Shown: piece by piece, positions 4,928 to 63,442 of the stretch
Layout of the letters: each line of letters starts with the position of its first letter
Numbering within the stretch: position 1 is the first letter of the stretch
Assembly: GCA_007376805.1 (NCBI GenBank)
Contig: VMGX01000002.1
Coordinates: 47,116 to 111,115 of the forward strand
Length of the DNA: 64,000 bases
Direction: 5' to 3'
Source: Parcubacteria group bacterium Athens0714_16
Lineage (GTDB): Bacteria > Patescibacteriota > Minisyncoccia > Phycocordibacterales > 21-14-all-36-13
Notes under the pieces: model-generated
What the model was told of the DNA's origin: nothing
Seen by the model: the letters and a program-made list of their open reading frames with translations, nothing else
The model's database searches: none
Position numbers and translations under genes: made by a program

Positions 4928-4979
4928 TTAGTTAGTTCTCTAAAATTACAAACGATTATAATTTTAGAGAACTAACTAA
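4928..4979 (+). other. perfect 20-bp inverted repeat (hairpin) immediately upstream of a small ORF
   Basis: TTAGTTAGTTCTCTAAAATT (4928-4947) and AATTTTAGAGAACTAACTAA (4960-4979), with a 12-nt loop. Confidence 0.7.
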
Positions 4980-5557: not shown

Positions 5558-5745
5558 GTTTTTATAATTATTAAAGTATATTATCTCAAAAATTGCCTAT
5601 GTGCAAACTTGCCCCGTTAAATAATTTGTCCATGACAAATTCCTGCACGAGCAGGATTTAACAGGGCCAAATTTTAAACAACAAAACAATGAAATAATGA
5701 AGCAAAAATATTATGGATTCAAATGCTCATTTAGAGCATTTGAAT

Positions 5746-8863: not shown

Positions 8864-8966
8864 GTCTTTAATTTAATACAAGCCCCATCAATTTTATTGT
8901 TTTAATTTCTAACGGGACAGGTACTATTTAGACCTGATTTCCAAATGTTAGGACTTGAGCTTTGTT

Positions 8967-9007
8967 ATCTGCGTCTATCTGCGGTTTTTTATCCGCGTAT
9001 ATCTGCG
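8967..9007 (-). repeat. composite CGCAGAT heptad module (four copies, 10/14/10 spacing)
   Basis: ATCTGCG at 8967, 8977 and 9001; variant ATCCGCG at 8991. The reverse complement reads CGCAGAT-ATA-CGCGGAT-AAAAAAC-CGCAGAT-AGA-CGCAGAT. Confidence 0.7.
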
Positions 9008-13210: not shown

Positions 13211-13362
13211 TTTCCCAAAAAATAAAGAACGAAGTGACTATATTTTTTGAGGACCCAGCCCCACTTTTCTAAAAAGACAGGAAGTATCATAAAACTGAAA
13301 AAGGGTTCCAAAATTTGGGATAATATTTATGGTTTGTTATAAAAAAGTGGGGCTGTGGTGCC
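13211..13362 (+). repeat. dispersed intergenic element with internal inverted repeat CAGCCCCACTTTT / AAAAGTGGGGCTG (copy A)
   Basis: Inverted-repeat arms at 13256-13268 and 13343-13355. Alignable over about 150 nt with the reverse complement of 55966-56117. Confidence 0.75.
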
Positions 13363-15097: not shown

Positions 15098-15360
15098 CGA
15101 ATATAAAAATCATCATCCAGCTCCACTTTTACATAACAATTATCTCATCCAGCACCACTTTTGTAACAGATTTTTGTTTTATCACTAAACTTTAGAAAAT
15201 TTTCTTAGGTTTATAATGTCTTTAAAATCAAAAACAAAAGTGGTGCTGGATATTTTCAATACTCATAAAAATATATAAAATCACTTTGTAAAGAATTGTT
15301 CCGTAAAAGTGGGGCTGGATTCTCAAAAAATATACTCATCCTTTTCGTTATTTTTTGGAA
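15098..15360. repeat. nested copies of the CAGCYCCACTTTT inverted-repeat element (copy C)
   Basis: Outer arms at 15118-15130 and 15305-15317. Inner arms at 15150-15162 and 15236-15248. The right flank matches the conserved flank of copies A and B. Confidence 0.7.
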
Positions 15361-26750: not shown

Positions 26751-26907
26751 CGCAGATTCACCCCGTTAAATAATTTTAAATTGAAAGAAAAATAATATAG
26801 GTATGTTTTTTAAAAACGGAGGAAAACAAAATTTATACTAGTAATGAAAAAATTTAAAATTAAAATTTGAGAGAACTCAAATTTTATTTAATAGGGTAAA
26901 CGCAGAT
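26751..26907 (+). mobile_element. 157-nt MITE-like element (copy 1)
   Basis: CGCAGAT-TCACCCCGTTAAATAA...TTATTTAATAGGGTAAA-CGCAGAT. Near-identical to 42029-42186. Begins 4 nt after the rny stop. Confidence 0.65.
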
Positions 26908-27193
26908 AAAAAACCGCAGATTTTTGCAGATAGAAAAAACAAGAAAACAAAAAACTACCAAGGGTAACTCTTGGTGGTTTTTATTTACTCACACACAATT
27001 TTCATAAATAATCCTTTTGTCGTGCCTTTAAATAACCCCGCCAGTTGGCGGATTTTTGTTAGAAGTAGGATTTAACGCGGTAAATTTTTTGTTATCTGAT
27101 ATAATGTAAATGTTTAGAAAGAGTTATTAATTTAATCTACACAAGGAATGATGTTTTTTTTGGAAAAGCTTTATTTCTTAGAATAAAATAAAA

Positions 27194-31554: not shown

Positions 31555-31592
31555 CGCAGATTTGCGCAGATTGTACGCAGATAAACGCAGAT
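31555..31592 (+). repeat. four phased CGCAGAT heptads immediately upstream of the nusA start
   Basis: CGCAGAT at 31555, 31565, 31576 and 31586 (10/11/10 spacing). Confidence 0.7.
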
Positions 31593-33637: not shown

Positions 33638-33738
33638 TCACCCCCGGCTTCAATTTAGGAATTGATAAAAGTTAATTCATCCCAGTGAAATAGTTTTCAA
33701 ATTCCACAGGACAGGTAATATTTTTTAAATTCAAAAAC

Positions 33739-34902: not shown

Positions 34903-35224
34903 ATGAAAAAGCCCTAACTTTAAAATCTCTAACTTTAAAAGCTCTAAATGAGCTTTTAAAGAATTGTGTCAGTTTTTTATTATTCTCCGAGATTTTAAAG
35001 AGTCGTGTTAGATTTTAATCCTATTTTGGGCTTTTTCATCCACCCCAGTGAAATAGTTTTTAAATTTCACGGGGCAAGTAATATTTTTGTTTTTTTTAAA
35101 ATCCACCCTGACCATATATCGGGGTGGTTTTTTATTCACTGCTTTACAGAAAATAAAAAATAAATTTGATATAATTTACATTATAAAATAAAAACATTTA
35201 TGTTTTTTGTAATTTTATAAATCT

Positions 35225-36979
35225 ATGAAAATAGAAGAAGAAAAATTAAAAGAATTTATTTTAGACTCTGGATTAATTTCTAAAAAAGATCTTGTAGAGG
35301 CTCAGACCGAGGGGGCTAAAAGAAGTATCAGTACAGGCGAAATACTTGTAAACAAGGGTCTTTTAAACGAGGATGATTTAAGGAGAATACATGCTCATAT
35401 TCTTGGAATACCATTTGTGAGTTTAAAAAATAAAAAAATTGATTTTGGAATACTTTCTATGATTCCTGAACCAATCGCCAGAAATCATAACATTGTTGCT
35501 TTCGGCAAGGACGCAAAAAATTTGGAAGTTGCCATGCTTGACGTGGATGATCTTGCAGCGGTTGATTTTGTTGGGAAAAAAGTTGGATTAAAAATTTTAT
35601 CTAGATTAACGGACAGCGAATCAATCAAAAGTGTCTTACTTCAATATCAAAAAACATTAAAAGCGGAATTCGGAGATATTATTAAAAAAGAAGGAGCAGC
35701 AATAAGAAATATAAAAGAAGGGAAAGAAGAAGAAATTTCAGAAAAAGATTTGAAAAAAATGGCAGAGGACTTACCCGTTATAAGAATTGTTGATACGCTT
35801 TTGAAACATGCGGTTTTGCAAAGTGCTTCCGATATTCACATTGAGCCAATGGAAAGAGATCTTTTGGTTAGGTATAGAATAGACGGAATATTGAGAGACG
35901 CAATGATATTACCAAAAAATGCAGCACCGAGTATTTCCGCAAGAATAAAAGTTTTATCTAATTTAAAACTTGATGAAAAAAGATTACCACAGGACGGTAG
36001 ATTTAAAATTGAGATGGAAGGACAAAAGGTTTCTTTGAGAGTTTCGATTTTGCCAATATACTATGGAGAAAAAGTTGTTATGAGGTTATTGAGGGAAGGG
36101 GCTTCTGGTTTTACTCTTGAAGGATTAGGTTTTCACGGAGAAGCTCTTGAGAGAATACATAACGCAACAAAACAAACAACCGGAATGATTTTGACCACAG
36201 GACCAACCGGCTGTGGTAAAACAACAACACTTTATACAATTTTAGATATTTTAAATACTCCGGAAGTTAATATATCAACAATTGAAGATCCCATTGAATA
36301 TCAAATGCCAAGAGTAAATCAAACGCAAGTAAAAGCAGATATTGGGTTTACATTCGGCAACGGACTTCGTTCTCTTGTCAGACAAGACCCGGATATAATA
36401 ATGGTTGGTGAAATAAGAGACACGGAGACAGCATCTCTTGCTGTGAATGCATCCCTAACCGGACACTTAGTTCTATCAACTCTACACACGAACTCTGCCG
36501 CTGGGGCAATGCCGAGATTAATTGATATGAAAATAGAGCCGTTTCTAATTGTTTCAACAATAAAAGTTATTGTTGGACAAAGATTGGTAAGAAAATTAGA
36601 TGCTCAAAAGGAAAAATATCTTTTAACTCCCGCAGAAATGAAATCACTTGGGAAATCGGTTGACTTGGATAGAATATTTAAAATTTTGAAAGAAGAAAAC
36701 ATTATAGATTCTAAAATTTCTAGCTTTGAGGAGATTCCATTTTATCGTCCAAAATCATCAACGGAAAATCCAGAAGGATATAAGAGCAGAATTGGAATTC
36801 ACGAAGTTCTCAAGATGTCTCCCGCTATAAAAGATTTAATAATTGAAAATGCCGACAGTGCAAAAATTGAAGAACAGGCAAAAAAAGAAGGCATGATGAC
36901 CATGATTGAAGATGGAATTTTTAAAGCAGTTCAGGGTACTACCAGTATAGAAGAAATTTTGAGGGTTATTTCGGAGTAG
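35225..36979 (+). CDS. pilB: type II/IV secretion system ATPase (GspE/PilB family)
   Basis: 584 aa. Walker A GPTGCGKTTT, Asp box, Walker B IIMVGEIRD, His box LVLSTLHTN. Confidence 0.9.
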   Translation: MKIEEEKLKEFILDSGLISKKDLVEAQTEGAKRSISTGEILVNKGLLNEDDLRRIHAHILGIPFVSLKNKKIDFGILSMIPEPIARNHNIVAFGKDAKNLEVAMLDVDDLAAVDFVGKKVGLKILSRLTDSESIKSVLLQYQKTLKAEFGDIIKKEGAAIRNIKEGKEEEISEKDLKKMAEDLPVIRIVDTLLKHAVLQSASDIHIEPMERDLLVRYRIDGILRDAMILPKNAAPSISARIKVLSNLKLDEKRLPQDGRFKIEMEGQKVSLRVSILPIYYGEKVVMRLLREGASGFTLEGLGFHGEALERIHNATKQTTGMILTTGPTGCGKTTTLYTILDILNTPEVNISTIEDPIEYQMPRVNQTQVKADIGFTFGNGLRSLVRQDPDIIMVGEIRDTETASLAVNASLTGHLVLSTLHTNSAAGAMPRLIDMKIEPFLIVSTIKVIVGQRLVRKLDAQKEKYLLTPAEMKSLGKSVDLDRIFKILKEENIIDSKISSFEEIPFYRPKSSTENPEGYKSRIGIHEVLKMSPAIKDLIIENADSAKIEEQAKKEGMMTMIEDGIFKAVQGTTSIEEILRVISE

Positions 36980-37095: not shown

Positions 37096-38310
37096 ATGAA
37101 ATTTAAATTTAAAGCAATAAAAAAAGACGGAGAAATCTTTGAAGATACAACAGAGACAAAAGATAAGTCTTCTTTGTTTTCTTATCTTAGGGATGAAGAA
37201 CTGACATTAATTTCTAGCGAAGAAGTTAAAGAAGGTAGTTCGTTTTTTAATAAAAAAAATCTTAATTTTTTTGGAAAAATAAAAATAGAGGAAAAAATAA
37301 TGTTTGCAAGAAATCTCGGAGCGATGATAAAGGCCGGACTTTCTTTAACAAGAGCAATTTCGGTTATAGGAAGACAAACAAAAAATGTAAAAATGAAGAA
37401 TATTCTTCGAAGCATTGAAAGTGATTTGGGTGGGGGTAATACTCTTGGAAGCGCTCTGTCAAAATTTCCGGAAGTATTCTCACCGCTCTTTGTATCAATG
37501 GTTGGTGCTGGAGAAGAAAGCGGGGATTTGTCTGGTTCTTTGAGAAATATATCCGAACAAATGGAGAGATCAAACAATCTTAGAAAAAAAATAAAAGGAG
37601 CTATGATATACCCATCTATTATTACTGTGGCGATGATAATAATAGGTATTTTGATGTTAATTTTTGTTGTGCCAACGTTAACCTCAACGTTTAAAGAGCT
37701 TGGTGCAGAATTACCGTTCAGTACGCAACTTATCATTACGATAAGTGAACTTTTCAAACAAAATACACTCGTGATGATTTTTGTATTGATTTTAATTTCT
37801 TTTTCTAGTTATAGTTTATCTAGAACTAAAAAAGGAAAACGTTTTTTTGATTTCATTATTCTAAAAATGCCACTAATTAATGGTTTAATAAAAGAAGTAA
37901 ATTCTGCCAGAACGGCCAGTACTCTTTCTACCCTACTTTCTTCTGGGGTTGATGTTGTTAGGTCTTTAGAAATAACAAAAAACGTGGTTCAGAATTCATT
38001 TTATAAAGAAATTATAGATAAGGCCCAAAAATCTATTCAAAAAGGTGCACCCATCTCACAAACTTTTAGGGATAATGAAAATTTTTACCCAGCATTTGTT
38101 GGAGAAATGATTTCTGTTGGTGAAGAAACAGGGCAATTACCAGATTTATTGATGCAAGTGGCAAATTTTTATGAGGATGAAGTGGAAAGAAAAACAAAAA
38201 ATATGTCTACAATAATTGAACCGCTATTGATGGTTTTTGTTGGTGCGGCGTTAGGTTTTTTTGCAATCTCAATGATAACCCCAATGTATTCTTTAACAAA
38301 TAGTATATAA
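37096..38310 (+). CDS. pilC: type IV pilus / T2SS platform protein (PilC/GspF family)
   Basis: 404 aa. Duplicated GspF-type domains and three TM segments. Adjacent to the ATPase. Confidence 0.85.
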   Translation: MKFKFKAIKKDGEIFEDTTETKDKSSLFSYLRDEELTLISSEEVKEGSSFFNKKNLNFFGKIKIEEKIMFARNLGAMIKAGLSLTRAISVIGRQTKNVKMKNILRSIESDLGGGNTLGSALSKFPEVFSPLFVSMVGAGEESGDLSGSLRNISEQMERSNNLRKKIKGAMIYPSIITVAMIIIGILMLIFVVPTLTSTFKELGAELPFSTQLIITISELFKQNTLVMIFVLILISFSSYSLSRTKKGKRFFDFIILKMPLINGLIKEVNSARTASTLSTLLSSGVDVVRSLEITKNVVQNSFYKEIIDKAQKSIQKGAPISQTFRDNENFYPAFVGEMISVGEETGQLPDLLMQVANFYEDEVERKTKNMSTIIEPLLMVFVGAALGFFAISMITPMYSLTNSI

Positions 38311-38452
38311 AATATTTTTTATGCATCCCGTAGTAGAAAATGGCATAAATATAAAATATTAAAAATGAGAAAATCAAAAAATAAAAATTTTATCAATATT
38401 AAAAACAAAAATGACCACGCTCTTTTAGAGCGATGCCATTTTTCACTACAGG

Positions 38453-38914
38453 ATGCAAACTAAAAAAGGATTCTCATTGTTTGAAATGCTTTTATCAATT
38501 GCAATTATTGTTGCGGTTTTGTTTGTTGTTATAAGTTTGTTTTCAAATTATAACAAAAAACAAGTTTTAGATAATTCCTCAGAAAAAATATCTTCATTAT
38601 TAAAAGAGGCTAGAAGTTTGACCATTTCTTCTAAGGGAGATAGTTCATATGGTGTTCATTTTGAACAAGGAGTAGCTGTTCTTTTTAAGGGAACGACATA
38701 TGTTTCTGGAGATTCAAATAATAAAATAAATCAAATAGACCAAAAAGCCTTAATATCATCCATAAATTTAAATGGTAATGGAAACAACGTTGTTTTTCAG
38801 AGACTAACCGGGAAAACAGATCATTACGGAACGATAAAAATATCTTTAGTTTCGAATCCTCTAAATTTTAAAATCGTATCAATTTATCAAACCGGCGTTG
38901 TAGAAAAGAATTAA
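38453..38914 (+). CDS. prepilin-type N-terminal cleavage/methylation domain protein
   Basis: MQTKKG|FSLFEMLLSIAIIVAVLFVV is a classic short leader with G-1 and E+5. Confidence 0.8.
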   Translation: MQTKKGFSLFEMLLSIAIIVAVLFVVISLFSNYNKKQVLDNSSEKISSLLKEARSLTISSKGDSSYGVHFEQGVAVLFKGTTYVSGDSNNKINQIDQKALISSINLNGNGNNVVFQRLTGKTDHYGTIKISLVSNPLNFKIVSIYQTGVVEKN

Positions 38915-39006
38915 CCCTGTTAAATAATTCTAAAGTTTTATAAAAAACTTTAGAATTAAAAATTGTAAATAAAGGATAAAATAAAATTAGTAAGATATAA
39001 AAAGTT

Positions 39007-39528
39007 ATGATGAAAAAATACCCATTTAATAAAAGCCCACAATTTTTATTTAACAGGGCAAGTAAAAAAGGAATTGGACTAGTTGAGATGATAGTTGGGC
39101 TCTCTGTTTTTGTTCTTATTGTTTTGAGTTTTATTATTTCTCTAAATTATTTCATAAAAAACTCTATTTTGGGCACAAAAACAGTTCAGTCATATTTTTT
39201 GGCAGAAGAAGGCATTGAAGCAATAAAATCTATGAGAAATAATAGTTGGACGACAAATATTAATCAACTTATTTCAGGACAAGAATATTATTTTTATTTC
39301 AACGAAAGTAAGTGGGAAAGTACCACTACTCCAAGTAAGATTGATAATTTTTTTACAAGAAAATTCAGTTTGGAAAATATATACAGAGATACAAATGGAG
39401 ATATTTCTTTGGCTGGTGTTTTTGACCCGGGTTCTAAAAAGGTCAACGTGTCAATTTCTTATTCCTTAAAAGAAAATATTGTGACAAAAAATCTTTCTAT
39501 GATTATAACGAATATCTTTGGTAATTAA
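39007..39528 (+). CDS. prepilin-like protein with long leader
   Basis: ...NRASKKG|IGLVEMIVGLSVFVLIV. The leader (22 aa from ATG 39007) is encoded inside a repeat-family inverted repeat. Confidence 0.7.
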   Translation: MMKKYPFNKSPQFLFNRASKKGIGLVEMIVGLSVFVLIVLSFIISLNYFIKNSILGTKTVQSYFLAEEGIEAIKSMRNNSWTTNINQLISGQEYYFYFNESKWESTTTPSKIDNFFTRKFSLENIYRDTNGDISLAGVFDPGSKKVNVSISYSLKENIVTKNLSMIITNIFGN

Positions 39529-39654
39529 CTTTAAAAGCTCTAAATGAGCTTTTAAAGAACCATGTTAATTTTTTATTTTGAAAGATCATTTTAATCCACC
39601 CCATTAGAGATGAAATTATTAACAAAATTTGCAATAAATATTTAATATAAATTT

Positions 39655-40212
39655 ATGAAAGTGAATAAAATATTACCAATTTATCTACGGAAATGTTTAA
39701 AAACATTTCCTATCTCTAACGGGGCGAGTAAAGGAATTTCACTAATAGAAACATTGATATATATGGCTATAACCACGATGGTGTTAATTTTTGTTGTTAA
39801 CATGATGATGTTTACATCCAAAACATTTAATAATTTTAAAACCTCAAGAGATATAAAAAATTCAGCGACCATATCGATGGACAGAATGATAAATGAAATC
39901 AGAAAGGCAAAAAATGCAGACCAGACATTAAGTTTGTTTAATAACCCAAACGGAAAGTTGGCCCTTAATATGGCGAACGGCGACAAAACGACTTTTTTTC
40001 TTGATTCGGGGATTTTAAAAATAGAAAACAATGGGGTAATAGAAGGTAGTTTAAGTTTGTCTAATACTTTTATAGGCAATTTGGTATTTAGAATGATTAA
40101 TAACCAAAAAGGACAAGCCATAAAAATAGAGATGAATATAAAAGACAAAGAGAGTGGTTTTACAAAGTCAGAAAATTTTTATATGACGACGGTTCTTAGT
40201 GGGTCATACTAA
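39655..40212 (+). CDS. prepilin-like protein with long leader
   Basis: ...SNGASKG|ISLIETLIYMAITTMVLIFVV. The 28-aa leader overlaps repeat-family sequence. Confidence 0.7.
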   Translation: MKVNKILPIYLRKCLKTFPISNGASKGISLIETLIYMAITTMVLIFVVNMMMFTSKTFNNFKTSRDIKNSATISMDRMINEIRKAKNADQTLSLFNNPNGKLALNMANGDKTTFFLDSGILKIENNGVIEGSLSLSNTFIGNLVFRMINNQKGQAIKIEMNIKDKESGFTKSENFYMTTVLSGSY

Positions 40213-40255
40213 CTAAAAATCTGAGAGATTTTTAAGAAACATAAATGAACAAAAA

Positions 40256-42028
40256 ATGAAACAAATGAATTATAAAAAAGGACAAGTGATGTTGGGTATA
40301 GTTATTATGTTTGTTGTTATTTCACTATCAGTTGTTTCTGGTGTTGCTTGGAATGTCCAAAAAGAAGTTGCGACAGAATCGAATTTATCTTCCTCTGCCA
40401 AAAGTTATTATTCTGCTGAATCAATTACCGAGGATGTTGTTTATAGAATCAAAAATGGGATTCAGGTATCTCCAACAGAAACAATAAATATTAATGATGC
40501 AATAGGAACGGCAGTTGTTTCAGATAGTTCCGGTATAAAAACAATAAGTAGTTCGGGAGATTCAAGAGGGGCAATAAGGAAAGTTTCTGTTTCTTTGACA
40601 GAAGGAAGCGGAGTGGCTTTTAATTATGGTATCCAAACCGGAGTTGGTGGGTTTGTAATGTCTGGAGGTGCACGAATAAATGGCAACGTGTATTCAAACG
40701 GGGATATTATTGCAACAAATGGAGTTGTAATTACCGGTTCAGCTGTTGCGGCAAATAGTTCGGCAATATCTGCAGACCAAATAAATGATACTCCTTCTAC
40801 TCCACCAAGTTCAATAACATTTGCGAACGTCAGTGCTACACAGGACACAGCACAAAGTTTCCAAGTTTCTTCCACTGGTCAAATTAATAATGTTCAGTTT
40901 TATTTAAAAAGAGTTGGAACATCTCTTCCTGCAAATATTACTGTAAAAATTGTCACTGATAATGCAGGTTCTCCAAGCACAAACATATTGGACACTGCAA
41001 CAATTACTGCTGGGATGGTCACAACAAGTTACGGATGGATTACTGCTACATTTACAGAAAACAGGGAACTCGTTTCTGGTGTTACATACTGGGTAGTTCT
41101 TGATGGTGGGACGAGTAGCAATAAATATTATATTCTTGGTGCGAACAATACATACGTAAATGGTGTGGCTAAAATATATAATGGTTCAAGTTGGGTTGCT
41201 ACCAGTCCATCTGGTTTGGATAGTTATTTTAAATTATACATGGGAGGTCTTAATTCAATTTTGGGTGGCGGGACATATGTTGGGAGTGTTTATATTGGTT
41301 CTGCGGGGGTTGGTGATGCGTGGGCACACACCGTGACTGGTGCGAGTGTTGCCGGGAATCTATATTGTCAGGTTGGTGATGATAATAACAAGGTGTGTAA
41401 TACATCTAAAGGCGATCCTTCACCACAAGGATTTCCTATTTCTGACGCAAACATAGATGTGTGGAAAGAAGAAGCAGAAGCGGGCGGTGTTATAAATGGT
41501 AATTATTCTGTTGGTTGGCAGGGAGCCACTTTGGGGCCTAAAAAAATAACAGGAAACTTAACGGTAACTGGCGGAGGTATATTTACAGTCTCTGGTACAT
41601 TGTGGGTTCAAGGAACAATAAGTCTTTCTGGGGGTGGTTCAATTAAACTGGCGGCATCTTACGGAGCAAAAAGCGGTGTTCTTATTTCGGACAATAGAAT
41701 TACACTTGCTGGTGGTGGGGACGTATCCGGTTCAGGAACAAGTGGAAGTTATATTCTTATTCTAACAACAAGTGATTGTCCAACAAGTTTATCCTGTGGT
41801 GGGAGTAATGCCATTGAGGTTGGTGGCGGAGCTGGAGCAATGATACTTAATGCACAGAAAGGAACAATACATCTTGGTGGTGGAGTTTCACTCAAAGAAG
41901 CTACCGCATATAAAATTACAGCCGACGGAGGTGCTGTTATTACCTATGAATCAGGTCTGGCTAATCCAAATTTTTCGAGTGGCCCGGGAGGAGGTTATAA
42001 CATAAGCGGTTGGGCTGAAGTAGAATGA
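40256..42028 (+). CDS. large pilus-associated / PilX-like protein with Gly-rich beta-helix-like C-terminus
   Basis: 590 aa. N-terminal hydrophobic helix KKGQVMLGIVIMFVVISLSV without E+5. Gly/Ser/Thr-rich repeats. Last gene of the cluster. Confidence 0.5.
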   Translation: MKQMNYKKGQVMLGIVIMFVVISLSVVSGVAWNVQKEVATESNLSSSAKSYYSAESITEDVVYRIKNGIQVSPTETININDAIGTAVVSDSSGIKTISSSGDSRGAIRKVSVSLTEGSGVAFNYGIQTGVGGFVMSGGARINGNVYSNGDIIATNGVVITGSAVAANSSAISADQINDTPSTPPSSITFANVSATQDTAQSFQVSSTGQINNVQFYLKRVGTSLPANITVKIVTDNAGSPSTNILDTATITAGMVTTSYGWITATFTENRELVSGVTYWVVLDGGTSSNKYYILGANNTYVNGVAKIYNGSSWVATSPSGLDSYFKLYMGGLNSILGGGTYVGSVYIGSAGVGDAWAHTVTGASVAGNLYCQVGDDNNKVCNTSKGDPSPQGFPISDANIDVWKEEAEAGGVINGNYSVGWQGATLGPKKITGNLTVTGGGIFTVSGTLWVQGTISLSGGGSIKLAASYGAKSGVLISDNRITLAGGGDVSGSGTSGSYILILTTSDCPTSLSCGGSNAIEVGGGAGAMILNAQKGTIHLGGGVSLKEATAYKITADGGAVITYESGLANPNFSSGPGGGYNISGWAEVE

Positions 42029-42186
42029 CGCAGATTCACCCCGTTAAATAATTTTAAATCGAAAGAAAAATAATATAGGTATGTTTTTAAAAAAAAGAGG
42101 AAAACAAAATCCTATATTAGTAATGAAAAAATTTAAAATTAAAATTTGAGTTCTCTCAAATTTTATTTAACAGGGTAAACGCAGAT
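42029..42186 (+). mobile_element. 158-nt MITE-like element (copy 2)
   Basis: Starts at the base after the stop codon. Same CGCAGAT flanks and CCCCGTTAAATAA / TTATTTAACAGGG terminal inverted repeats as 26751-26907. Confidence 0.65.
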
Positions 42187-42366
42187 GAATGAATGAAAAA
42201 ACAATCTAAATTGCTTTTTCATTCACAATATTTTTCATCCATCCCAGTTAAATATGCTTTGCATTTAACGGGACAGGTAATATCTTTTTAAATCTCCCCA
42301 AAAAGCTTATTTATAGCCATATTTTAAAAAATATAAGAATACTATGCTATAATTAAGATGTAAAAT

Positions 42367-49917: not shown

Positions 49918-50067
49918 ATTTTTCTTATTAAGTGTGATTATGTTATCATAATATCAAATTTATTCAAGTATTATGTCCCAGTAGCAAAATATTTTTCAAT
50001 ATTATAAGTTGCATTCAAAACACAGCGGATGAATTAAAATTTCTTTTAAATATTTTAAATTCTGATT

Positions 50068-50697
50068 TTGCTACGGGATAAACAAGGAATGGAAACAATT
50101 TTTTCAATAATAATATTAATTTTTTCTGTTGTCATACACGAGTTTTCTCATGGATATGCCGCAGATAAATTAGGCGACCCAACTGCTCGGTTGGCTGGTC
50201 GTCTGACCTTAAACCCATTTGCACACCTTTCTTTATTTGGTTCTTTCATTTTTCCTCTAATAACATATTCGCTCGGTGGTTTTATTTTTGGTTGGGCAAA
50301 ACCAGTTCCCTATAATCCATACAACATAAGACATAAATATGGAGATGCAATTGTTGCGGTCGCTGGCCCGGGCTCAAATTTTTTACTTGCAGTAATTTTT
50401 GGTGTTTTGATTCGTCTCAATGTCGCATATGGTCTTTTCCCGTCGCCATTTATTGATGTTTTTGCTCTGATTGTTGTTATAAATATAATTTTAGGAATTT
50501 TTAATCTGATCCCGATTCCACCATTGGATGGTTCAAAAATTCTTTTTAACTTTTTGCCGGTCAGATATTTATTTATAAAAGATTTTCTTGAAAAATATTG
50601 GCCAGTTTTCGCATTTATACTCGTTTTCTTTTTGTGGAAATTTATACTACCACTCGTTCATTTAATTTTTTCTCTCATAACAGGAATAGCCGTTTAA
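50068..50697 (+). CDS. M50 family (site-2 protease-like) zinc metalloprotease
   Basis: HEFSHGYAA (HExxH) and [14 protein letters not shown] (NxxPxxxLDG) motifs, polytopic. The start may be METIFS at 50089. Confidence 0.8.
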
Positions 50698-51858: not shown

Positions 51859-52755
51859 ATGCGTGATTACCCATTAGAAAAAGTTAGAAACATAGGAATT
51901 ATTGCACACATAGACGCGGGGAAAACAACAGTTTCCGAGCGCGTTCTTTTTTATACAGGAGTTTCTCACAAAATAGGTGAAGTCCACGAAGGAAAGGCGG
52001 TTATGGATTGGATGGAACAGGAAAGAGAAAGAGGAATTACCATTACATCCGCTGCAACGACTTGTTTTTGGACTCCAACATATCAAACAATGCAGATAAA
52101 CGCAGATAAAAAATCGCAGATTGACGCAGATGAAACAAAAAAAGAATTTGAACACAGAATAAATATTATAGATACACCAGGACACGTGGACTTTACAGTT
52201 GAGGTTGAGAGATCTCTGAAGGTTCTTGACGGTGGTGTTGTTGTTTTTGACGGAGTCGCAGGAGTTGAACCACAGTCAGAAACAGTTTGGAGACAGGCAG
52301 ATAAATATCATGTTCCAAGAATTTGTTTTATAAACAAACTCGATAGAACAGGAGGAAATTTTGAAAGGTCATACAAAACAATTTTAGATAGATTAACAAA
52401 AAATGCAGTTAGAATGCAGATACCGATCGGTGAAGAAGAAAAACACATGGGAGTTGTTGATCTTTTGAAAATGAAAGCATTTTATTTTGAAGGAGATTTA
52501 GGGAGCACAATAAGAGAAGCTGAAATCCCAGACGAATTAAAGGCTGATGCACAGAAATACAGAAATGAACTTGTAGAAAAAATTGTTGAGAACGACGAAG
52601 AAATGATGACCAAATATCTTGGCGGTGAAGAGATTGGAGTTGATATTTTGAAAAAACTTTTAAGAAAATCAGTAATTGCTGGGTTGGTTGTTCCTGTTTT
52701 TACTGGTTCCGCATTAAAAAATAAAGGAGTTCAACTTGGATGTTCCGCCAATTAA
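51859..52755 (+). CDS. fusA: elongation factor G, N-terminal (G domain) ORF
   Basis: [14 protein letters not shown] and NKLD GTPase motifs. Ends ...[14 protein letters not shown] after a frame break. Contains a 27-aa insertion before [11 protein letters not shown]. Confidence 0.85.
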
Positions 52756-54007
52756 AGGAATAGACCCAAACACTGACGGAGAAATAGAAAGAAAATCAGA
52801 TGATAACGAGCCGTTTGCTGCGCTTGCTTTTAAATTACAAACGGACCCATTCGTTGGTCAGTTAACATATTTTAGAGTTTATTCAGGAACACTTGAATCT
52901 GGTTCTTATGTGTACAATTCTACAACAGGAGAAAAAGAAAGAATCGGAAGAATTTTAAGAATGCATGCAAACCTAAGAGAAGATGTAAAAAAAGTTTATG
53001 CAGGAGAAATTGCAGCAGCTGTTGGTCTTAAAAACACAAGAACATCAGATACTCTTTGTGACGAAGTCCATCCAATAATTCTTGAAAGAATTGTGTTCCC
53101 AGAACCGGTTGTATCTTTGAGAATTGAACCAAAAACAAAAGCAGACCAAGAAAAAATGGGTATTGCACTTAAAAAACTTTCTGACGAAGATCCAACATTC
53201 AGAATTAAATCAGATCAAGAAACACTGGAGACAATTATTTCTGGTATGGGAGAATTACACCTCGATATTATTGTGGACAGAATGAAAAGAGAATTTAATG
53301 TTGAAGCAAATATAGGCAAACCACAGGTTGCATACAGAGAAACAATAACAGGCGAGGCAGAAGCAGAATATAAATACATAAGACAAACAGGTGGTCGCGG
53401 ACAATACGGTCACGTAAAAATTAGAGTCAAACCAATGCCGTTAGAAGAAGAAAAAAATAAAAAACTTGCAAGAAATATAAAGAGGTCTGAGGGACTTGAA
53501 TTTATAAATAATATTAAAGGGGGCGTTATTCCACAAGAATATATTCCAGCAGTTGAAAAAGGGGTTCGTGAAGCGATGGACAGAGGTATTCAGGCTGGTT
53601 ATAAAATTGTAAATGTGTCAGTGGATTTGTTTGACGGTTCATTCCACGACGTTGACTCTTCTGAAATTGCATTCAAAATTGCAGCATCACAAGCATTTCA
53701 AGATGCAACAAAAAGAGCAAAACCAGTTATTCTTGAGCCTGTTATGAAATTAGAAGTTGTTACACCAGATAAATTTATGGGAGACATAACAGGAAATCTT
53801 GCTTCAAAGAGAGGACAAATTGAAGGCTCTGAAGAAAGAATTGGTTTGAAAGTAATTCATGCGAAAGTTCCTCTTTCAGAAATGTTTGGATATACGACAT
53901 CATTACGTTCAATGACAGAAGGCCGTGCATCTTCAACAATGGAATTTGATCATTATGCGATTGTACCGGAGAATGTTGCTAAAGAAATTATAGAAGCGAG
54001 AAAGTAG
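52736..54007 (+). CDS. fusA: elongation factor G, domains II-V ORF
   Basis: (L)DVPPIKG...PFAALAFK...ISGMGELHL...[11 protein letters not shown]. In the +1 frame relative to the upstream ORF. TTG at 52736 lies 6 nt after AAGGAG. Confidence 0.85.
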
Positions 54008-56487: not shown

Positions 56488-57296
56488 CTAACCTTGTGTT
56501 AAGAAATATGAACGAATACAAAAAATCACTAAAAAAGCGGAGGTAATAATCTTGTTTTTGAAGGATTATCGCCCGCTTATTAAAGCGGTTTTTTTATTAA
56601 AGAAATTGGCGGAATGACTGGACGAATGAACATTGAAAAATGAATATTAGTTAAGTTTAAAAGCAGAATCCAAGTGTCTTTTTCGTGGCACTGGATTTTA
56701 AAGTATTTTTCATCTAGCGGAATAGAAATATTCCATAGAAAATAAGTTTTATTAAGTCCCGCGTGATTTAATAAAAAAATTGTGGTTTATGTAGTTCCTA
56801 ACAGGAAATACATAAGGGCGTATGGTGGATGCCTTGACTCTAAGAGGCGATGAAGGACGTGGCATGGCTGCGATAAACTTCGGGGAGGTGCCTAGCAACC
56901 TTTGATCCGAAGGTTTCCGAATGGGGTAACCCATTGTGACAAACTCACAATACTGAATTTATTCAGTGCATACCTGGGGAAGTAAAACATTTCAGTACCC
57001 AGAGGAAAATAGAACAATAGTTATTCCCTTAGTAGCGGCGAGCGAAAAGGGAAAAGCCCAAACCGAACTCTTTTATTAGGGCTCGGGGTTGTAGGACGTT
57101 AATATCATATTTATATGAAAGAAGTTACAAATGTGTTAGATAGTTGAACAAGCTGGAAAGCTTGGCCCCAGAGGGTGATAGCCCCTTAAACGAAATTTTA
57201 CACACTTCTTTGTTAATGTTCCTGAGTATCTCAAGACACGAATGGCTTGAGAGAATCTGCCGGAACTAACCGGTAAGGCTAAATACTCTTAGAGAT

Positions 57297-57339
<43 letters not shown>

Positions 57340-58679
57340 GGAGAGGGGAGTGAAATAGACCTGAAACCATATGTCTACAAGGAGTCGGAGCAGAACTCTA
57401 CTGAGTTCTTTAAATATGTTTTTTAAAATTTATAATTTATGGATTTTAAAATTAGAGAATTGAGTAGAGTTTCTGCGACGGCGTGCCTATTGAAGAATGA
57501 GCCAACGAGTTTACATGTACTGCTTGACTAAGTCCCGAAAGGACGGAGTCTAAGGGAAACCGAGTGTTAAAAGCGCGTTCCGCTTTATTGCGGGTGTAGT
57601 ATATGTAAGACCCGAAGCCAGGTGAGCTACCCATGATCAGGGTGAACTTTGTCGAAAGACAAAGGGAGGCCCGAACCGTTTAGCCGTGCAAAACTATCGG
57701 ATGAATTGTGGGTAGGAGTGAAAAGCTAATCGAACTTGGTAATAGCTGGTTCTCTCCGAAATAGCTTTAGGGCTAGCGTTTAGTTTATCTTTTGGGGGTA
57801 GAGCACTGGATGGTCTGGATAGGAGGCAACTTCACTAGACCAATCAAACTCCGAATACCAGAAGCCACTACTAAACAGTCAGACTACGGGGGCTAAGCTC
57901 CGTCGGTCAAAAGGGAAACAGCCCAGATCTCAAGTTAAGGTCCCTAAATTTACATTAAGTGCAAATAAGGAGGTGGAATTTCTCCGACAGCGAGGAGGTT
58001 GGCTTAGAAGCAGCCATCCTTTAAAGAAAGCGTAACAGCTCACTCGTTAAGAGATTTTGCGCCACAAATAATCGGGGCTAAATGTGATACCGAAACTGAG
58101 GATGTCATCACTTTATTGTGATGGCGTGGTAGGAGAGCATTCCGTTCTACTGTGAAGCCAAAGGGGTGACCCATGGTGGAGTGTACGGAAGAGATAATGT
58201 TGGCACGAGTAACCACAATTCCACTAAGAAAGTGGAACGCCGAAAGATCAAGGTTTCCTTGGCAATGTAAATCATCCAAGGGTTAGTCGGTCCTAAGGTT
58301 ATGACGAAAGTCGGAGCCGATGGACACACGGTTAATATTCCGTGACTTTCATTTATTTCGATGGGGTGACGAAGTTTAGTATGTTTGGCGCATTATTGGA
58401 TTTGCGTCTACTTTGTGAGGAAGGTGCTTAGGCAAATCCGGGCACCTGACTTTAATGTCAATTCCAAGCGAGGCGGAGAACCTGAGATTCGTCAAAGGGA
58501 ATCAAACAAAGCAAGCTTCCAAGAAAAACCTCTAAGGTTAAATAAATGAAAACCGTACCGAAAACCGACACAGGTGATCAGGTCGAGAAGACTAAGGCGA
58601 ATGAGTGAGTGTTCCCCAAGGAACTCGGCAAAAAAGCAGCCGTAACTTTGGAATAAGGCTTTCCAGCTCCAATTTTGGG

Positions 58680-58950
58680 AGTAAAATTAAATTATGAATT
58701 ATGTTTATCTTATTCAAAATGATTTTGATGGAGAAATATATATTGGACAAACTTCTGATATAAAAAGAAGGTTGGCTGAACATAATAATAAATGTCAAAA
58801 AGTTTACCACTAAAAAACGGTAAGTGGATAATTATTTATCTTGAAATATTCAGAAATAAAAAAGATGCACAAGAAAGAGAAAATAAATTAAAACAACATG
58901 GTGGTGGTAAAAAAGAATTACTTAAGCGACTAAGATATAGTTTGCTTGAG
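58680..58950 (+). other. 271-nt insertion in the terminal loop of a helix-63-equivalent hairpin
   Basis: Closed by the 17-bp helix CCAGCTCCAATTTTGGG (58663-58679) with CCCAAAATTGGAGCTGG (58951-58967). Lacks the AUAUAGUC group I signature. Confidence 0.6.
58694..58935 (+). pseudogene. frameshifted GIY-YIG nuclease gene inside the 23S insertion
   Basis: Frame 1 reads MNYVYLIQNDFDGEIYIGQTSDIKRRLAEHNNK (GIY-YIG N-half, stop at 58813). The C-half KWIIIYLEIFRNKKDAQERENKLKQ continues in another frame from about 58792, with no stop until 59028 in rRNA sequence. The shift lies near an A-run. Confidence 0.65.
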
Positions 58951-59124
58951 CCCAAAATTGGAGCTGGACGCAGCGAAAGTACCCCTGGCGACTGTTTACC
59001 AAAAACACAGCTCCCTGCGAACTCGTAAGAGGATGTATAGGGGGTGACGCCTGACCAATGCCAGAAGGTTAAACATGAGGGGTCCAAGAAGTTTTACTTT
59101 TTGGGCTGGATTATGTAAGCCCTG

Positions 59125-59159
<35 letters not shown>

Positions 59160-59611
59160 TCTCGGTTTAATTTTTAAATTGAATCGAGAAAGACTAGGAC
59201 TGTTATAATAAAAAATTGGTAACAAAAGATTGCTGCCTATTTCACGTAAAGTGAAATGTCTATAAAATTTGACCATATGCTGGGAAACCCGCGATGTATC
59301 CTTAAGTACTCGTTTAATTTTTTAAACAGTAACAAACTTTAAGGTGATGCGGAAAATCAGCAGGAAAGTTTGAATTCTTTTTAATTAAATCTAGAATTCA
59401 AAATCCTCAGAGACTAAAAGTCAGACTAAGTTGTCTACAAAAACAATTTAGAAAATATAGTCCGAACTTTGTGGCGACACAGAGAGTGAGACAGAAATGT
59501 TCTTACCTTGTATCTGCGTTCATCTGCGCCTGCCCCGTAGCTAGAGCATAGCTCTATGGTACTGGGGTATAATTTGCGTAGATCTGCGTTTGTTACAAAG
59601 TAACAAAGTTG
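59160..59611 (+). mobile_element. group I intron (ORF-less) at the E. coli 1917-equivalent position
   Basis: Interrupts CCTAAGGT|...G|AGCGTAATTCC. The 5' exon ends in U and the intron ends in G. Contains AGACTAAAAGTC and GAAAATATAGTCC core-like motifs. Confidence 0.75.
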
Positions 59612-60105
59612 AGCGTAATTCCTTGTGTGGTAAGTTCACACGTGCACGAATGGCGTAACGACTGGGGGACTGTCTCGGGGAACAGCTCGGTGAAAATACA
59701 GTATCGGTGAAGATGCCGATTACCTGCAACGGGACGAAAAGACCCCGGGAGCTTTACTGCAACTTCGTATTGAATATACGTTTCATCTGCGTAGCATAGA
59801 TGGGAGACTTTGAAGTTTGTTTTTCGGAACAGATGGAGTCAACAGTGAAATACCATTCTTATGTGATGTATATTCTAACCTCAACGGCAAAAACGGTGAG
59901 GGACATTGCGTGGTGGGCAGTTTTAGTGGGGCGCTATCCTCCTAAAGAGTAACGGAGGAGTTTATCAAGGTCAGCTAGGCGCGAATGGAAACCGTGCCGA
60001 TAGTGTAATGGCACAAGCTGGCTTAACTGCGAGACGGACATGTCGAGCAGATGCGAAAGCAGAACATAATGAACCGACGATTCGAATTAGACACGGTCGG
60101 AGATT

Positions 60106-60138
<33 letters not shown>

Positions 60139-60181
60139 GGTTCCGCCTAAGCGTTCAGAGCGACGGCGGAGTTCGGCACCT

Positions 60182-60503
60182 TAAAGTAAATTTACAAATT
60201 TAAATCGGGGTGCGACGTGAGAGATTGCGTAGCCTGGAATCAAAAACATATTTGTAGGAGAATATGTTCAGATTAAAAATATTGGCTTATAACGGTGGAC
60301 TCCATCATAAAAATTTTTATTATGGACAATACCGTGGGAAGTCTTCGTTTTCAAAAACGAATGACCCCGTAGAGACTGATGCGAAAGCAGAGAGTATTTC
60401 ATAAACGAAATGCTAATACGCCAACTCCTAACCACAATAAATTAATTGTGGAAGGAAGAAGATATAGTCCGATCCTTCTGGTAACAGAAGAAAAATGACA
60501 TTG
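60182..60503 (+). mobile_element. group I intron (ORF-less) at the E. coli ~2500-equivalent position
   Basis: Interrupts GGCACCT|...G|CGATGTCGG. Contains GAAGATATAGTCC. Shares blocks with the next intron. Confidence 0.75.
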
Positions 60504-60659
60504 CGATGTCGGCTCGACTTATCCTGGGACTGGAGAAGGCCCCAAGGGTTTGGCTGTTCGCCAATTAAAAAGTCACGTGAGCTGGGTTCAGACCGTCGTG
60601 AGACAGGTTGGTCTCCTATCTGTTGCAGGCGTCGATTTTTGAGGAGATTTGCTTCTAGT

Positions 60660-61874: not shown

Positions 61875-61983
61875 GGCGGTATAGTTTAATCTGCTCTGGG
61901 CAGACTGACCAGTGGTTTTTGGTTAGGGTTAAAACGTCGCCCTTTTAAGGCGAAGAGTATTGGTTCGAGTCCGATTATCGTCA
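61875..61983 (+). tRNA. tRNA-Lys (anticodon UUU) with a 36-nt D-loop insertion
   Basis: Acceptor GGCGGTA/TATCGTC, D-stem GTTT/AAAC, anticodon arm TCGCC-CTTTTAA-GGCGA, T-arm ATTGG-TTCGAGT-CCGAT. The insert at 61891-61926 lies between AAT and GGTTA of the D-loop. Confidence 0.6.
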
Positions 61984-61989
61984 CAAAAG

Positions 61990-62064
61990 GCGGGGGTAGT
62001 TCAGTTGGTTAGAACATTCGTTTCGCAAAACGAAAGGTCGGTGGTTCGAGTCCACCCCTCTGCT
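61990..62064 (+). tRNA. tRNA-Ala-like (G3:U70; CGC-containing 8-nt anticodon loop)
   Basis: Acceptor GCGGGGG/CCTCTGC with G3:U70, D-arm GTTC-AGTTGGTTA-GAAC, anticodon stem TTCGT/ACGAA enclosing TTCGCAAA (8 nt), variable AGGTC, T-arm GGTGG-TTCGAGT-CCACC. Confidence 0.6.
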
Positions 62065-62205
62065 CGAAGTTTTTTTTGAGTTCTTTTATATGGGCCGTTG
62101 AATTAACAGACCGAGGTCTTTAGTGACTGGCGTAACAGCGCGGGCTCAACGGAACGGGAGAGCTTGGTTGGGGTAATCGGTAAATCACCCACGGTCTATC
62201 ATTTT

Positions 62206-62842: not shown

Positions 62843-63442
62843 ATACTTGAAAGTCCTTTTTACTACGGGGTATTTGAAAAACCAATAGGAAGCGGAAATT
62901 GGTATCAAGGAAAACATATACCGTTGATAACGCAGGAATTATTTGAAAAAGTAAAAACACAATTAAAGAGAGATAATATAGTTCGCCAATCAAAAGAATT
63001 TACTTTCACAAAACTAATGACCTGTGGACTTTGTGGTTCAGGGATATCTGCCGAAGAAAAATATAAGCAACTCAAAGACGGGACAACAGCTACATATAGA
63101 TATTATGGATGTAGTAGAGCAAAGGATAGATATTGTAAAAACCAATACCTACAAGAGAAAGATTTAACCGATCAGTTTATTAAATTAATAGATTCTGTAG
63201 ATTTAAATGAAGCGGGAGTAAAAATAAAATTTGAAGAGGAGTTAAGGAGATATAATAAATTTAATCTTGGAGTTTTGGGAGTTCAAAAGAAAAAAACAAA
63301 ACATGAAGATATTGATTTAAAAACATATGTGAAATATATTCTCCGAGATGGTACAAGTCAGGAGAAAAGAGAATTGATGGGATGTTTTAAATCAAAGATT
63401 AAAATTACGAAGAAAGTAGTGACGATCTCAGAATGTCGGTAA
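62843..63442 (+). pseudogene. 5'-truncated large serine recombinase (recombinase and zinc-ribbon domains only)
   Basis: Open frame ...FYYGVFEKPIGSGNWYQGKHIPLITQELFEKV then CGLCGSGISAEEKY...YRYYGCS zinc-ribbon and coiled coil. The N-terminal resolvase catalytic domain is absent, and an upstream in-frame TGA lies at 62840. Confidence 0.65.

Follow-up and report, generated by a model that had tools for sequence, protein, structure and literature searches.

Rickettsia palindromic elements (RPEs) are palindromes that lie in frame inside protein genes and are translated (Ogata et al. 2000, 2002, summarised in PMC10969869). A comparable arrangement was found in a 64,000-nt stretch (33.5% G+C) of contig VMGX01000002.1 from Parcubacteria group bacterium Athens0714_16, hereafter called the window, to which all unprefixed coordinates refer. 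There, inverted repeats bracket the start codons of two pilin-like genes of a type IV pilus operon, pilin 2 (39007-39528, + strand) and pilin 3 (39655-40212, +). [quoted passage not shown] As with the RPEs, the palindromes are about 100-150 bp long, occur in many copies and lie within protein-coding genes, where the frame is kept and the repeat appears to be translated. Unlike the RPEs, which occupy internal surface loops, the insertions are found only in the cleavable N-terminal leader or start-codon region, and the element supplies or relocates the start codon. Further differences are the nested smaller palindromes, the highly variable loops, and a host of unrelated phylum and base composition. 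For comparison, 1.2 Mb of DNA from close relatives and distant Patescibacteria was fetched as loci with L numbers, which were chosen for their pilin genes.

The Correia elements (CREE) of Neisseria and other MITEs share with the elements described here the terminal inverted repeats, the small size and the lack of an open reading frame (ORF), as well as some target duplications, a position immediately upstream of genes, variability between strains and the formation of hairpins when transcribed (PMC10969869; PMC3184786). However, the target duplication of Correia elements is TA, and they have promoters, IHF sites and RNase III sites that are defined (PMC10969869; PMC3184786), whereas the duplication found here is 5 bp long and contains ATG, many copies have an asymmetric RCARGT tail and no duplication, and no parent insertion sequence is known. 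The lengthened cleavable leader, the start codon in a hairpin loop and the ATG-containing target duplications are the features that distinguish these elements from RPEs and Correia elements. Repetitive extragenic palindromes (REPs) and bacterial interspersed mosaic elements, which are associated with REP-associated tyrosine transposases (RAYTs, IS200/IS605-like), are likewise short and imperfect as palindromes, conserve a bulged or mismatched base, and are extragenic, clustered or nested, and biased in orientation, and one arm subtype found here begins with GTAG. Most arm subtypes nevertheless lack GTAG/CTAC, which is present only in the GTAGTAG subtype (pilin 1, L065, L151), and the loops can exceed 100 nt and some copies have 5-bp direct repeats; no RAYT or Y1_Tnp match was obtained among the window proteins. 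In cyanobacteria, Elhai et al. reportedly described in 2008 small dispersed repeats or nested MITEs, tiny palindromes inserting into one another and into larger elements and extending hairpins. These share the nesting of palindromes and differ in sequence and host, and they are not known to be associated with start codons or leader peptides. Type IVb pilins, for which a long leader is an ancestral family trait, also have a leader of 15-30 aa followed by Gly and a hydrophobic helix with Glu at +5, but in the present case orthologues in sister genomes have leaders of 6-8 aa and the extra length consists of inserted repeat DNA.

The original prediction had described inverted repeats around the start codons of pilins 2 and 3, and both are borne out. 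At pilin 2, the 5' arm CCCTGTTAAATAA (38915-38927, +) begins right after the stop codon of the preceding gene, pilin 1 (38453-38914, +), and is complementary at 13 of 13 positions to the 3' arm TTATTTAACAGGG (39046-39058, +), which lies 118 nt away, with ATG 39007 between them. At pilin 3, CCCCATTAGAGA (39599-39610, +) and TCTCTAACGGGG (39713-39724) pair across a loop of 102 nt that contains ATG 39655; of the 12 positions, 11 match and one is an A.C mismatch. In the pilin-2 frame, TTA TTT AAC AGG GCA AGT AAA AAA GGA encodes LFNRASKKG, followed by IGLVEM, and in pilin 3, TCT AAC GGG GCG AGT AAA GGA encodes SNGASKG, followed by ISLIE. The homologous position in pilin 1, ACAGG-ATG-CAAACTAAAAAAGGA, reads ACAGG ATG CAA ACT AAA AAA GGA and provides the canonical short leader MQTKKG ahead of FSLFEML, and the codon in this former ATG position is GCA in pilin 2 and GCG in pilin 3, as had been claimed. 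Of the two leader lengths that had been given, the 22 aa of pilin 2 stood, whereas the pilin-3 leader comprises 27 aa instead of 28.

The leader coding part of pilin 2 (MMKKYPFNKSPQFLFNRASKKG, 39007-39072, +) begins with the ATG inside the element loop and continues through the 3' arm, which is read as L F N R(A), into the family tail GCAAGTAA joined to the cleavage motif AAAAAAGGA (KKG; 39058-39072, +). The mature part (IGLVEMIVGLSVF...) occupies 39073-39528. This element also has a perfect inner 15-bp hairpin (38925-38958, +) and a third stem (38958-38966 / 39039-39047). The leader coding part of pilin 3 (MKVNKILPIYLRKCLKTFPISNGASKG, 39655-39735, +) holds an inner hairpin (39689-39710), the 3' arm and the tail (39725-39735), and the mature part (ISLIETLIYMAIT...) occupies 39736-40212. 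In each leader, only the last 8-9 codons are the family-wide repeat of arm and tail, and the remainder is loop sequence of the long-loop variant. The insertion point of the pilin-3 element is the spacer motif ATCCAC (39593-39598), located after a terminator-like palindrome, CTTTAAAAGCTCTAAATGAGCTTTTAAAG (39529-39557, +). This 29-nt palindrome is a separate observation: it occurs identically after two genes (34933-34961 and 39529-39557), the ATCCAY insertion motif then follows each copy, and variants of it were seen in L148, L003 and L151.

Prepilin hallmarks are present, namely Gly at -1, Glu at +5 and an N-terminal hydrophobic helix, with the junctions KKG/IGLVEMIVGLSVF, SKG/ISLIETLIYMAIT and KKG/FSLFEMLLSIAII. 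The cleavage-site Gly and the Glu show no variation among 17 and 11 homologues, respectively. Matches to the Pfam family N_methyl (PF07963) were below the gathering score of 21.2 bits for pilin 1 (19.3 bits) and pilin 3 (17.9 bits), and pilin 2 had no match; the motif is short, and the weak matches of pilins 1 and 3 fall on the expected residues.

A long inverted repeat of pilin 1 itself (38323-38346 / 38433-38456) was absent from the original prediction. It belongs to a palindromic element of 127 nt (38326-38452, +) with an inner hairpin (38418-38432), and the 5-bp sequence ATGCA stands on both sides of it (38321-38325, + strand, and 38453-38457). The upstream ATGCA is a duplicated start codon whose frame stops after 13 codons. 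The element is absent in L003, L147, L064, L069 and L144, and the empty site reads TAAaatatttttATGCAAATT / TAAaatatttttATGCAAATTAAAAAAGGA in L003 and L147. In L148, another element ending in TTCTAACGGG lies directly before the pilin-1 ATG.

The inverted repeats are part of a dispersed family, as had been proposed: the short-loop copies align with one another, the arms show compensatory variants, and a covariance model finds copies in relatives. The claimed recurrence of the 3' arm and tail at non-pilin sites was verified, and further copies were added at 5607-5666 (-), 42039-42175 and 49977-50077. Approximately 11 copies were found in the 64 kb, with CCC...GGG ends, the 3' tail RCARGT and loops of 7 to >110 nt; the elements measure 36-150 nt, have no ORF of their own and are dispersed. 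A 17-mer of 3' arm plus tail has 8 matches with at most three mismatches compared to 0.86 expected, and none of 100 shuffles reached 8. The similarity of the copies extends beyond A/T-rich sequence to the cores CCCTG/CAGGGCAAG and CCCC/GGGGCGAG, contrary to the concern that it might be confined to low-complexity DNA. Hairpins as such are common in the spacers of the host genome, and perfect 13-bp inverted repeats within 150 nt amount to 84 k-mer pairs versus 1.1 in shuffles.

Seven short-loop copies could be aligned as ATCCAY-CCC-A-stem-loop(7-9 nt)-stem-GGG-RCARGT-AATATTTTT, with invariant CCC..GGG and a conserved tail. Their stems occur in the compensatory versions GTTAAA/TTTAAC, GTGAAA/TTTCAC, GTAAAA/TTTTAC and GTAGTAGAGC/GCTCACTAC, with a bulged or mismatched A at position 4, and the arms CCC(A/T)GTTAAAT, CCCCATTAGA(A/G) and CCCGTAGTAG each pair with their complement. 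The six copies of about 110 nt have only termini of around 20 nt in common. Consensus folding of these six gave an outer stem and one mini-hairpin as the only common structure, with a covariation term of -0.97 kcal/mol, and therefore makes no case for a structured RNA core. Across 150 kb from the window and its close relatives, the covariance model of the short form found 14 copies, each of them on the operon strand, and the motif is essentially limited to this clade. All copies in the window point in the same direction as the local genes; one reverse-oriented copy was seen in L064/L147.

Short-loop copies are located in the 3' UTR of an M23/LysM peptidase gene (2435-2470, +), at 33681-33716 (+), upstream of pilB (35043-35079, +) and upstream of tpiA (42243-42278, +). 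A copy whose 32-nt loop consists of two mini-hairpins lies between two minus-strand genes (5607-5666, -), and one with a 55-nt loop (8840-8922, +) abuts with its 5' arm the start of the opposite-strand PNPase gene (TTTCTAATGGG before ATG 8839). The long-loop copy at 42039-42175 (+; loop of about 111 nt) is found downstream of the fourth pilin-like gene between two CGCAGAT repeats, and a copy with GTAGCAAAAT arms and a 78-nt loop (49977-50077, +) ends 12 nt upstream of the M50 peptidase ATG 50089. Two candidate assignments were not retained. An integron attC-like reading of GTTAAAT...ATTTAAC was rejected by inspection, as its core sites run in the opposite order to R''/R' and it does not accommodate the other arm subtypes. 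The PilC start, CTAACGGG before ATG 37096, resembles the 3' arm; no 5' arm was found upstream, and it was left as a possible remnant. No description of the family was found in the literature searched on palindromic repeats of Patescibacteria and on the terminal sequences.

A perfect 13-bp inverted repeat around a 118-bp segment that carries the sole start codon would also be expected of an invertible DNA segment, in which flipping of the ATG-carrying loop switches pilins 2 and 3 on and off as a form of phase variation. The window encodes a tyrosine recombinase (11102-12034) and a serine-recombinase fragment (62924-63442), and inversion has been reported for Correia elements (PMC10969869). However, no recombinase gene adjoins the elements, and family copies with loops of 7-9 nt cannot invert. 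Only one orientation was observed, for pilin 2 in the window, L001, L002 and L144-146, and for pilin 3 in the window, L001, L003, L066, L149 and L150. A phase-variation switch is thus the least credible of the explanations considered, with only a slight chance of being correct.

The comparison with relatives reveals empty, filled and nested sites. In most relatives, pilins 2 and 3 have leaders of 6-14 aa, and those of the pilin-2 homologues are mostly short, such as MRLTFKKG, MKLILKKG, MKIKHEKG and MKISKIKKVENKKG. In the closest relative, L148 (dS 0.45), pilin 2 starts 4 nt after pilin 1 (TAAaaacATG) with the leader MRLTFKKG and without an element. Its pilin 3 has the leader MKITKG and the uninterrupted sequence ATCCAC/AATATATTTTT (ATCCAC/AATAT...ATGAAAATAACAAAAGGA), which is the empty form of the filled site in the window. 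L069 is also free of elements at the same pilin genes. In L003 and L149, the same arms (CCCTGTTAAAT...ATTTAACAGGGCAAGTAAAA) with a 32-nt loop lie upstream of a normal ATG and a short leader. Relatives with the hairpin outside the gene or without any hairpin agree with the proposal that the long leaders of the window are encoded by repeat sequence. The L004 spacer holds another subtype (CCCCATTAGAAGT, 91-nt loop), and the pilin-2 module is also present in L144 (96%) and, decayed, at pilin 3 of L068.

Nested insertions were found in L003 and L004. The pilin-3 leader of L003 corresponds to that of the window plus a 60-nt hairpin element nested right after the first 3' arm, and in L149, whose mature pilin 3 is 99.2% identical to that of L003, the inner hairpin is replaced and the nested copy is absent. 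The empty/filled polymorphism, the nested in-frame insertions and the membership in the family are direct observations. A possible homology between MKVNK, close to the ATG in the pilin-3 loop, and MKITK of the short L148 leader was not used, as the sequences are too A/T-rich to decide. Separately, the PilX-like fourth gene of L144 is called with an N-terminal extension of about 50 aa that runs through a complete long-loop element (3033-3225; ...QFLFNRARKNNYKKGQIMIGIV), and this element is related to the pilin-2 element of the window.

Translation of the long leaders is well supported by the patterns of substitutions, indels and available start codons. Pilin 2 contains no in-frame ATG, GTG, TTG, CTG or ATN between 39010 and the cleavage Gly, which leaves ATG 39007/39010 in the loop as the usable starts, and the 3' arm and tail would therefore be translated. 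As the mature pilins are under purifying selection (dN/dS 0.09-0.28 compared to relatives; 0.11-0.28 for pilin 2 alone) and a later start is lacking, the long pilin-2 leader would have to be made. ATG 39007 and ATG 39655 look like ordinary starts, since most genes in the window lack a Shine-Dalgarno sequence and a typical start is A/T-rich-ATG-AAA. Between the pilin-3 leaders of the window and L003, four substitutions are synonymous and one is non-synonymous (dN 0.019, dS 0.33). Indels between homologous leaders are all multiples of three: +60 nt in L003, -6 nt in L149, -3 nt in L068 pilin 3 compared to window pilin 2, and -6 nt in L144 pilin 3, counted from its second ATG. The frame is kept in the pilin-3 leaders of L003 (47 aa) and L149 (25 aa), and repeats inside an ORF with the frame kept occur in pilins 2 and 3 of the window, L003, L149, L147/L064, gene 4 of L144 and L038 (35 codons).

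The longest of these leaders, with 69 codons in L147/L064, spans two nested elements and differs between the two genomes by 31 substitutions without an indel; frame 0 is open, while every other frame has 8-10 stops. In spacers, a stop-free run of 49 codons is found at about 4% of positions and one of 67 codons at about 1-2.5%. Hypermutation by a diversity-generating retroelement was rejected as a source of the 31 substitutions because the changes are not adenine-specific. Pilin 3 of L068 retains the leader MIKKYLFERPQFLFSKTNKKG even though the 5' arm is absent and the 3' arm is decayed, so the module appears to persist as peptide-coding sequence independently of the hairpin. From these comparisons we infer that the long leaders are actually translated and cleaved.

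Alternatively, the hairpins could be terminators or attenuators between the pilin genes, with the true starts at non-canonical codons close to the cleavage site and the long leaders as annotation artefacts. The pilin-2 element does follow the upstream stop codon immediately, an in-frame near-cognate ATC that could serve as a start lies at 39712 in pilin 3, and in L147/L064 a TTG in frame precedes the Gly by 11 codons. On the other hand, a terminator or attenuator role, which had been raised in the original prediction, found no backing: no plus-strand terminator was predicted in 38250-40300, and the stems are followed by GCAAGTAAAAAA and AAAAATTG, with no U-tract after any of them. A late start is at odds with the lack of any suitable codon in pilin 2 downstream of 39010, and upstream of the putative alternative starts, both substitutions and indels follow a coding pattern. 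All five substitutions between the pilin-3 leaders of the window and L003 are located upstream of ATC 39712, four of the five being synonymous. This explanation is therefore considered very improbable. A promoter scan of 38250-40300 gave 12 promoter-like matches versus 12.1 in shuffles. One of the promoter-like sequences, TTAACA-18-TAATAT, ends 6 nt before ATG 39655 and could give a leaderless transcript; its -10 element matches at only 4/6 positions, and it was not built on.

The history of the leader modules differs from that of the genes, and the pattern is mosaic. Over the 158 nt from the pilin-1 stop to the pilin-2 Gly, the window and L144 share 96.2% identity and differ by no indel, although the flanking coding DNA is only 74-81% identical (dS 0.84-0.98). 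Likewise, the pilin-3 element is 94.4% identical between the window and L003, with flanks at 78-83%, and the flank dS in the two comparisons is 0.8-1.2. The opposite is seen between L003 and L149, where the element is 74% identical though pilin 3 is 99.2% identical, and between L147 and L064 (element ~72%, flanks 98-99%). Mature pilin 2 of the window is nearest to L148 along its length, whereas its leader and first three codons (GGA ATT GGA) match L144/L003. This mosaic of identities indicates that replacement or exchange of modules is far faster than gene divergence. The exchange could plausibly occur by homologous recombination following DNA uptake, and the ComEC gene and type IV pilus (T4P) machinery in the window would fit natural transformation.

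The main rival explanation is that the hairpins are functional RNA of the pilus operon, controlling initiation or RNase processing and stability and thereby setting the ratio of the pilin-like proteins, with the long leaders as a by-product. Such a role is compatible with a mobile-element origin. The three pilin 5' regions fold better than shuffles: pilin 1 reaches -41.1 kcal/mol (z = -7.0), and its 3' arm pairs with its own AUG at 38453, which is sequestered in the stem; pilin 2 forms a three-way fold (z = -2.9) and pilin 3 a predicted long-range stem (z = -3.7). Between the window and L144, no other stretch of the operon is as conserved as the modules, and RNase III is known to cut the transcribed MITE arms of Correia elements (PMC10969869). 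The compensatory arm variants and the co-orientation of the window copies with transcription also favour an RNA function. Against it, these genes carry no elements in the closest relative L148 or in L069, the element content of near-identical strains is completely different, and copies also occur in the 3' UTRs and divergent spacers of unrelated genes. The loop interiors, as opposed to the termini, have almost no conserved structure, and one of the synonymous differences between the pilin-3 leaders of the window and L003 disrupts a base pair in the inner hairpin. No relevant match was obtained with Rfam: at the gathering score, Rfam 15 identified only rRNA, tRNAs and a group I intron in the whole window, all elsewhere, and on 38250-40300 with E-values up to 5 the best hit had an E-value of 1.5. 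A regulatory RNA as the primary explanation is therefore regarded as unlikely, though it deserves far more weight than terminators or inversion.

The favoured explanation remains that the spacers of this Paceibacteria-type lineage are home to MITE-like hairpin elements whose loops consist of nested smaller palindromes. They would insert at or next to start codons or into the spacer motif ATCCAY/AATAT, and a gene would stay intact when the insertion falls on its start codon and duplicates the ATG. In pilins 2 and 3, the element presumably came to separate the Lys-Gly cleavage motif from the upstream stop codon. The downstream ATG may later have been lost (GCA/GCG), so that expression would rely on the in-frame ATG in the hairpin loop, with the ribosome reading the 3' arm and tail as the last 8-9 residues of the 22-aa and 27-aa leaders. 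Prepilin peptidase would be expected to cut the leader off after the Gly. Class III signal peptides are removed at a conserved Gly, and prepilin genes could for this reason tolerate insertions, which the pilin genes would have accumulated, nested and exchanged. The elements are considered MITE-like because of their conserved termini, variable interiors, presence/absence polymorphism, nesting and some target duplications, and a transposition mechanism is inferred.

Several results weigh against this explanation. No transposase was detected among the 50 scanned window proteins, and a search of the 1.2 Mb of fetched loci for matching termini 0.4-3.5 kb apart around an ORF, as expected of a parent element, gave one spurious pair. 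Target duplications are not recognisable at pilin 2, pilin 3 or the short-loop copies, and the asymmetric RCARGT tail on these same copies goes beyond a simple MITE model. The compensatory arm changes and the co-orientation of the ~11 copies with transcription are expected of a functional RNA or single-stranded DNA hairpin, and a role of the hairpins in expression is possible. The open frames of the two window leaders (22 and 27 codons) would, taken singly, not be surprising by chance (15-24%). Furthermore, the high identity of modules between diverged genomes could partly be due to selection instead of exchange, and no Peptidase_A24 or prepilin peptidase gene was found within the window.

If the explanation holds, selfish palindromic DNA can join a gene harmlessly, type IV pilins offer it a safe landing pad in their cleavable leader, and the start codon itself can move into the repeat. 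This would affect annotation, since pilin-like genes of Candidate Phyla Radiation (CPR) bacteria are called with leaders of 6 to 69 aa in near-identical strains, and hairpins right before an ATG may be mistaken for regulatory RNAs. The fast replacement of leader modules between strains would also provide a recombination marker for unculturable organisms.

Related termini, CCCGTTAGAA...TTCTAACGGG, were found in distant Patescibacteria, where TTCTAACGGG is directly followed by the ATG or GTG of a long ORF at five loci (L013, L038, L073, L135 and L159). Perfect 5-bp direct repeats including the start codon (ATGAA or ATGAG) are present at 4/5 loci, and L135 matches at 4/5 positions. ATGAA repeats flank the elements of a pgk-like gene (L013 2617-2747), rplV (L073 8396-8490) and a gene on an IMG/VR contig (L159 284-324, - strand). 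At a pilX-like gene (L038 7029-7141), the repeats are ATGAG and the 35-codon element is in frame with the gene, and at a pilC-like gene (L135 4138-4268), ATGAA on the upstream side faces GTGAA on the gene side. L148 and L135 have 23 identical nt of element end. The PNPase gene of the window (minus strand) shows the same junction at ATG 8839; its annotated first ATG, 8863, is in the element loop, and the second one (8839) marks the beginning of the conserved N-terminus MKKKEYSLEFGGK. A scan of IMG/VR for TTCTAACGGGATGAA gave 37 matches, mostly chance, with one element (on two contigs) having the matching 5' arm and an ATGAA duplication. As the loci were chosen for their pilin genes, the enrichment near pilus genes is biased, which does not apply to the start-codon junctions themselves.

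These junctions tentatively point to a widespread superfamily of hairpin MITEs in Patescibacteria (CCCGTTAGAA...TTCTAACGGG and derivatives) that favours start codons and regenerates the ATG by a 5-bp duplication (ATGAA/ATGAG/ATGCA), with prepilins as a permissive sink and leader cassettes exchanged between strains, an extension that has perhaps one chance in three of being right. Under this assumption, insertions in largely Shine-Dalgarno-free, partly leaderless genomes would create N-terminal extensions or relocated starts. Since prepilins discard their N-terminus, elements would pile up, nest and supply new start codons there, and the cassettes might be exchanged via the pilus- and ComEC-dependent DNA uptake served by the same genes. 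Target duplications that contain the start codon, found in several distant Patescibacteria, suggest that insertion has a preference or that selection acts as a filter, neither of which is known to have been described for these reduced genomes.

The nearest database relatives of the window are metagenome-assembled genomes labelled Patescibacteria or Candidatus Paceibacterota. Directly upstream of the pilins, the operon encodes PilB (35225-36979; T2SSE, E = 1e-119) and PilC (37096-38310; T2SSF). The pilins are followed by the fourth pilin-like gene, a PilX-like gene of 590 aa (40256-42028), and ComEC and RecJ are encoded downstream of the operon. Start regions in the window suggest that leaderless mRNAs are common in the host organism, and a survey of -10-to-ATG spacing was consistent with leaderless mRNA for about 6-14 of 48 genes, with nothing decisive for the pilin ATGs. 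A perfect TATAAT ends 6-8 nt before the ATG of six genes (11102, 21082(-), 31783, 43227(-), 43761 and 51310), three of which (21082, 43227 and 43761) have an upstream TGn.

Further observations in the window concern other repeats and genes. The heptamer CGCAGAT occurs 24 times compared to 2.7 expected, often in runs with a spacing of about 10 nt (8967-9007, 26901-26921, 31555-31592, 42029-42035, 42180-42186, 52101-52131 and 59512-59588). The runs are found in the spacer upstream of a nusA-like gene, in the 5' ORF of fusA and in the 23S rRNA insert, and two copies flank the long-loop element 42039-42175. Elongation factor G is split into overlapping ORFs for the GTPase domain (51859-52755) and domains II-V (52736-54007); a frameshift or an assembly error could account for this, or the gene may truly be split or recoded. 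The 23S rRNA gene (56802-60656) has 3855 nt compared to 2925 nt in the model and contains a group I intron (59214-59484, 62 bits); the insert sequence exceeds what this intron alone explains. A tRNA-like gene in the region 61920-62065 with an abnormal anticodon loop (ARAGORN '???', cgca) adjoins a partial tRNA match and lies near a serine-recombinase zinc-ribbon fragment (62924-63442) and a pyrimidine-dimer glycosylase gene; the region may be what is left of an integrated element. Further long, perfect inverted repeats, with arms of 13-21 bp and loops of 11-80 nt, are present at 13254-13357, 15147-15251 and 4928-4979; they are unrelated in sequence to the family, and one of them adjoins a tRNA-Arg gene.

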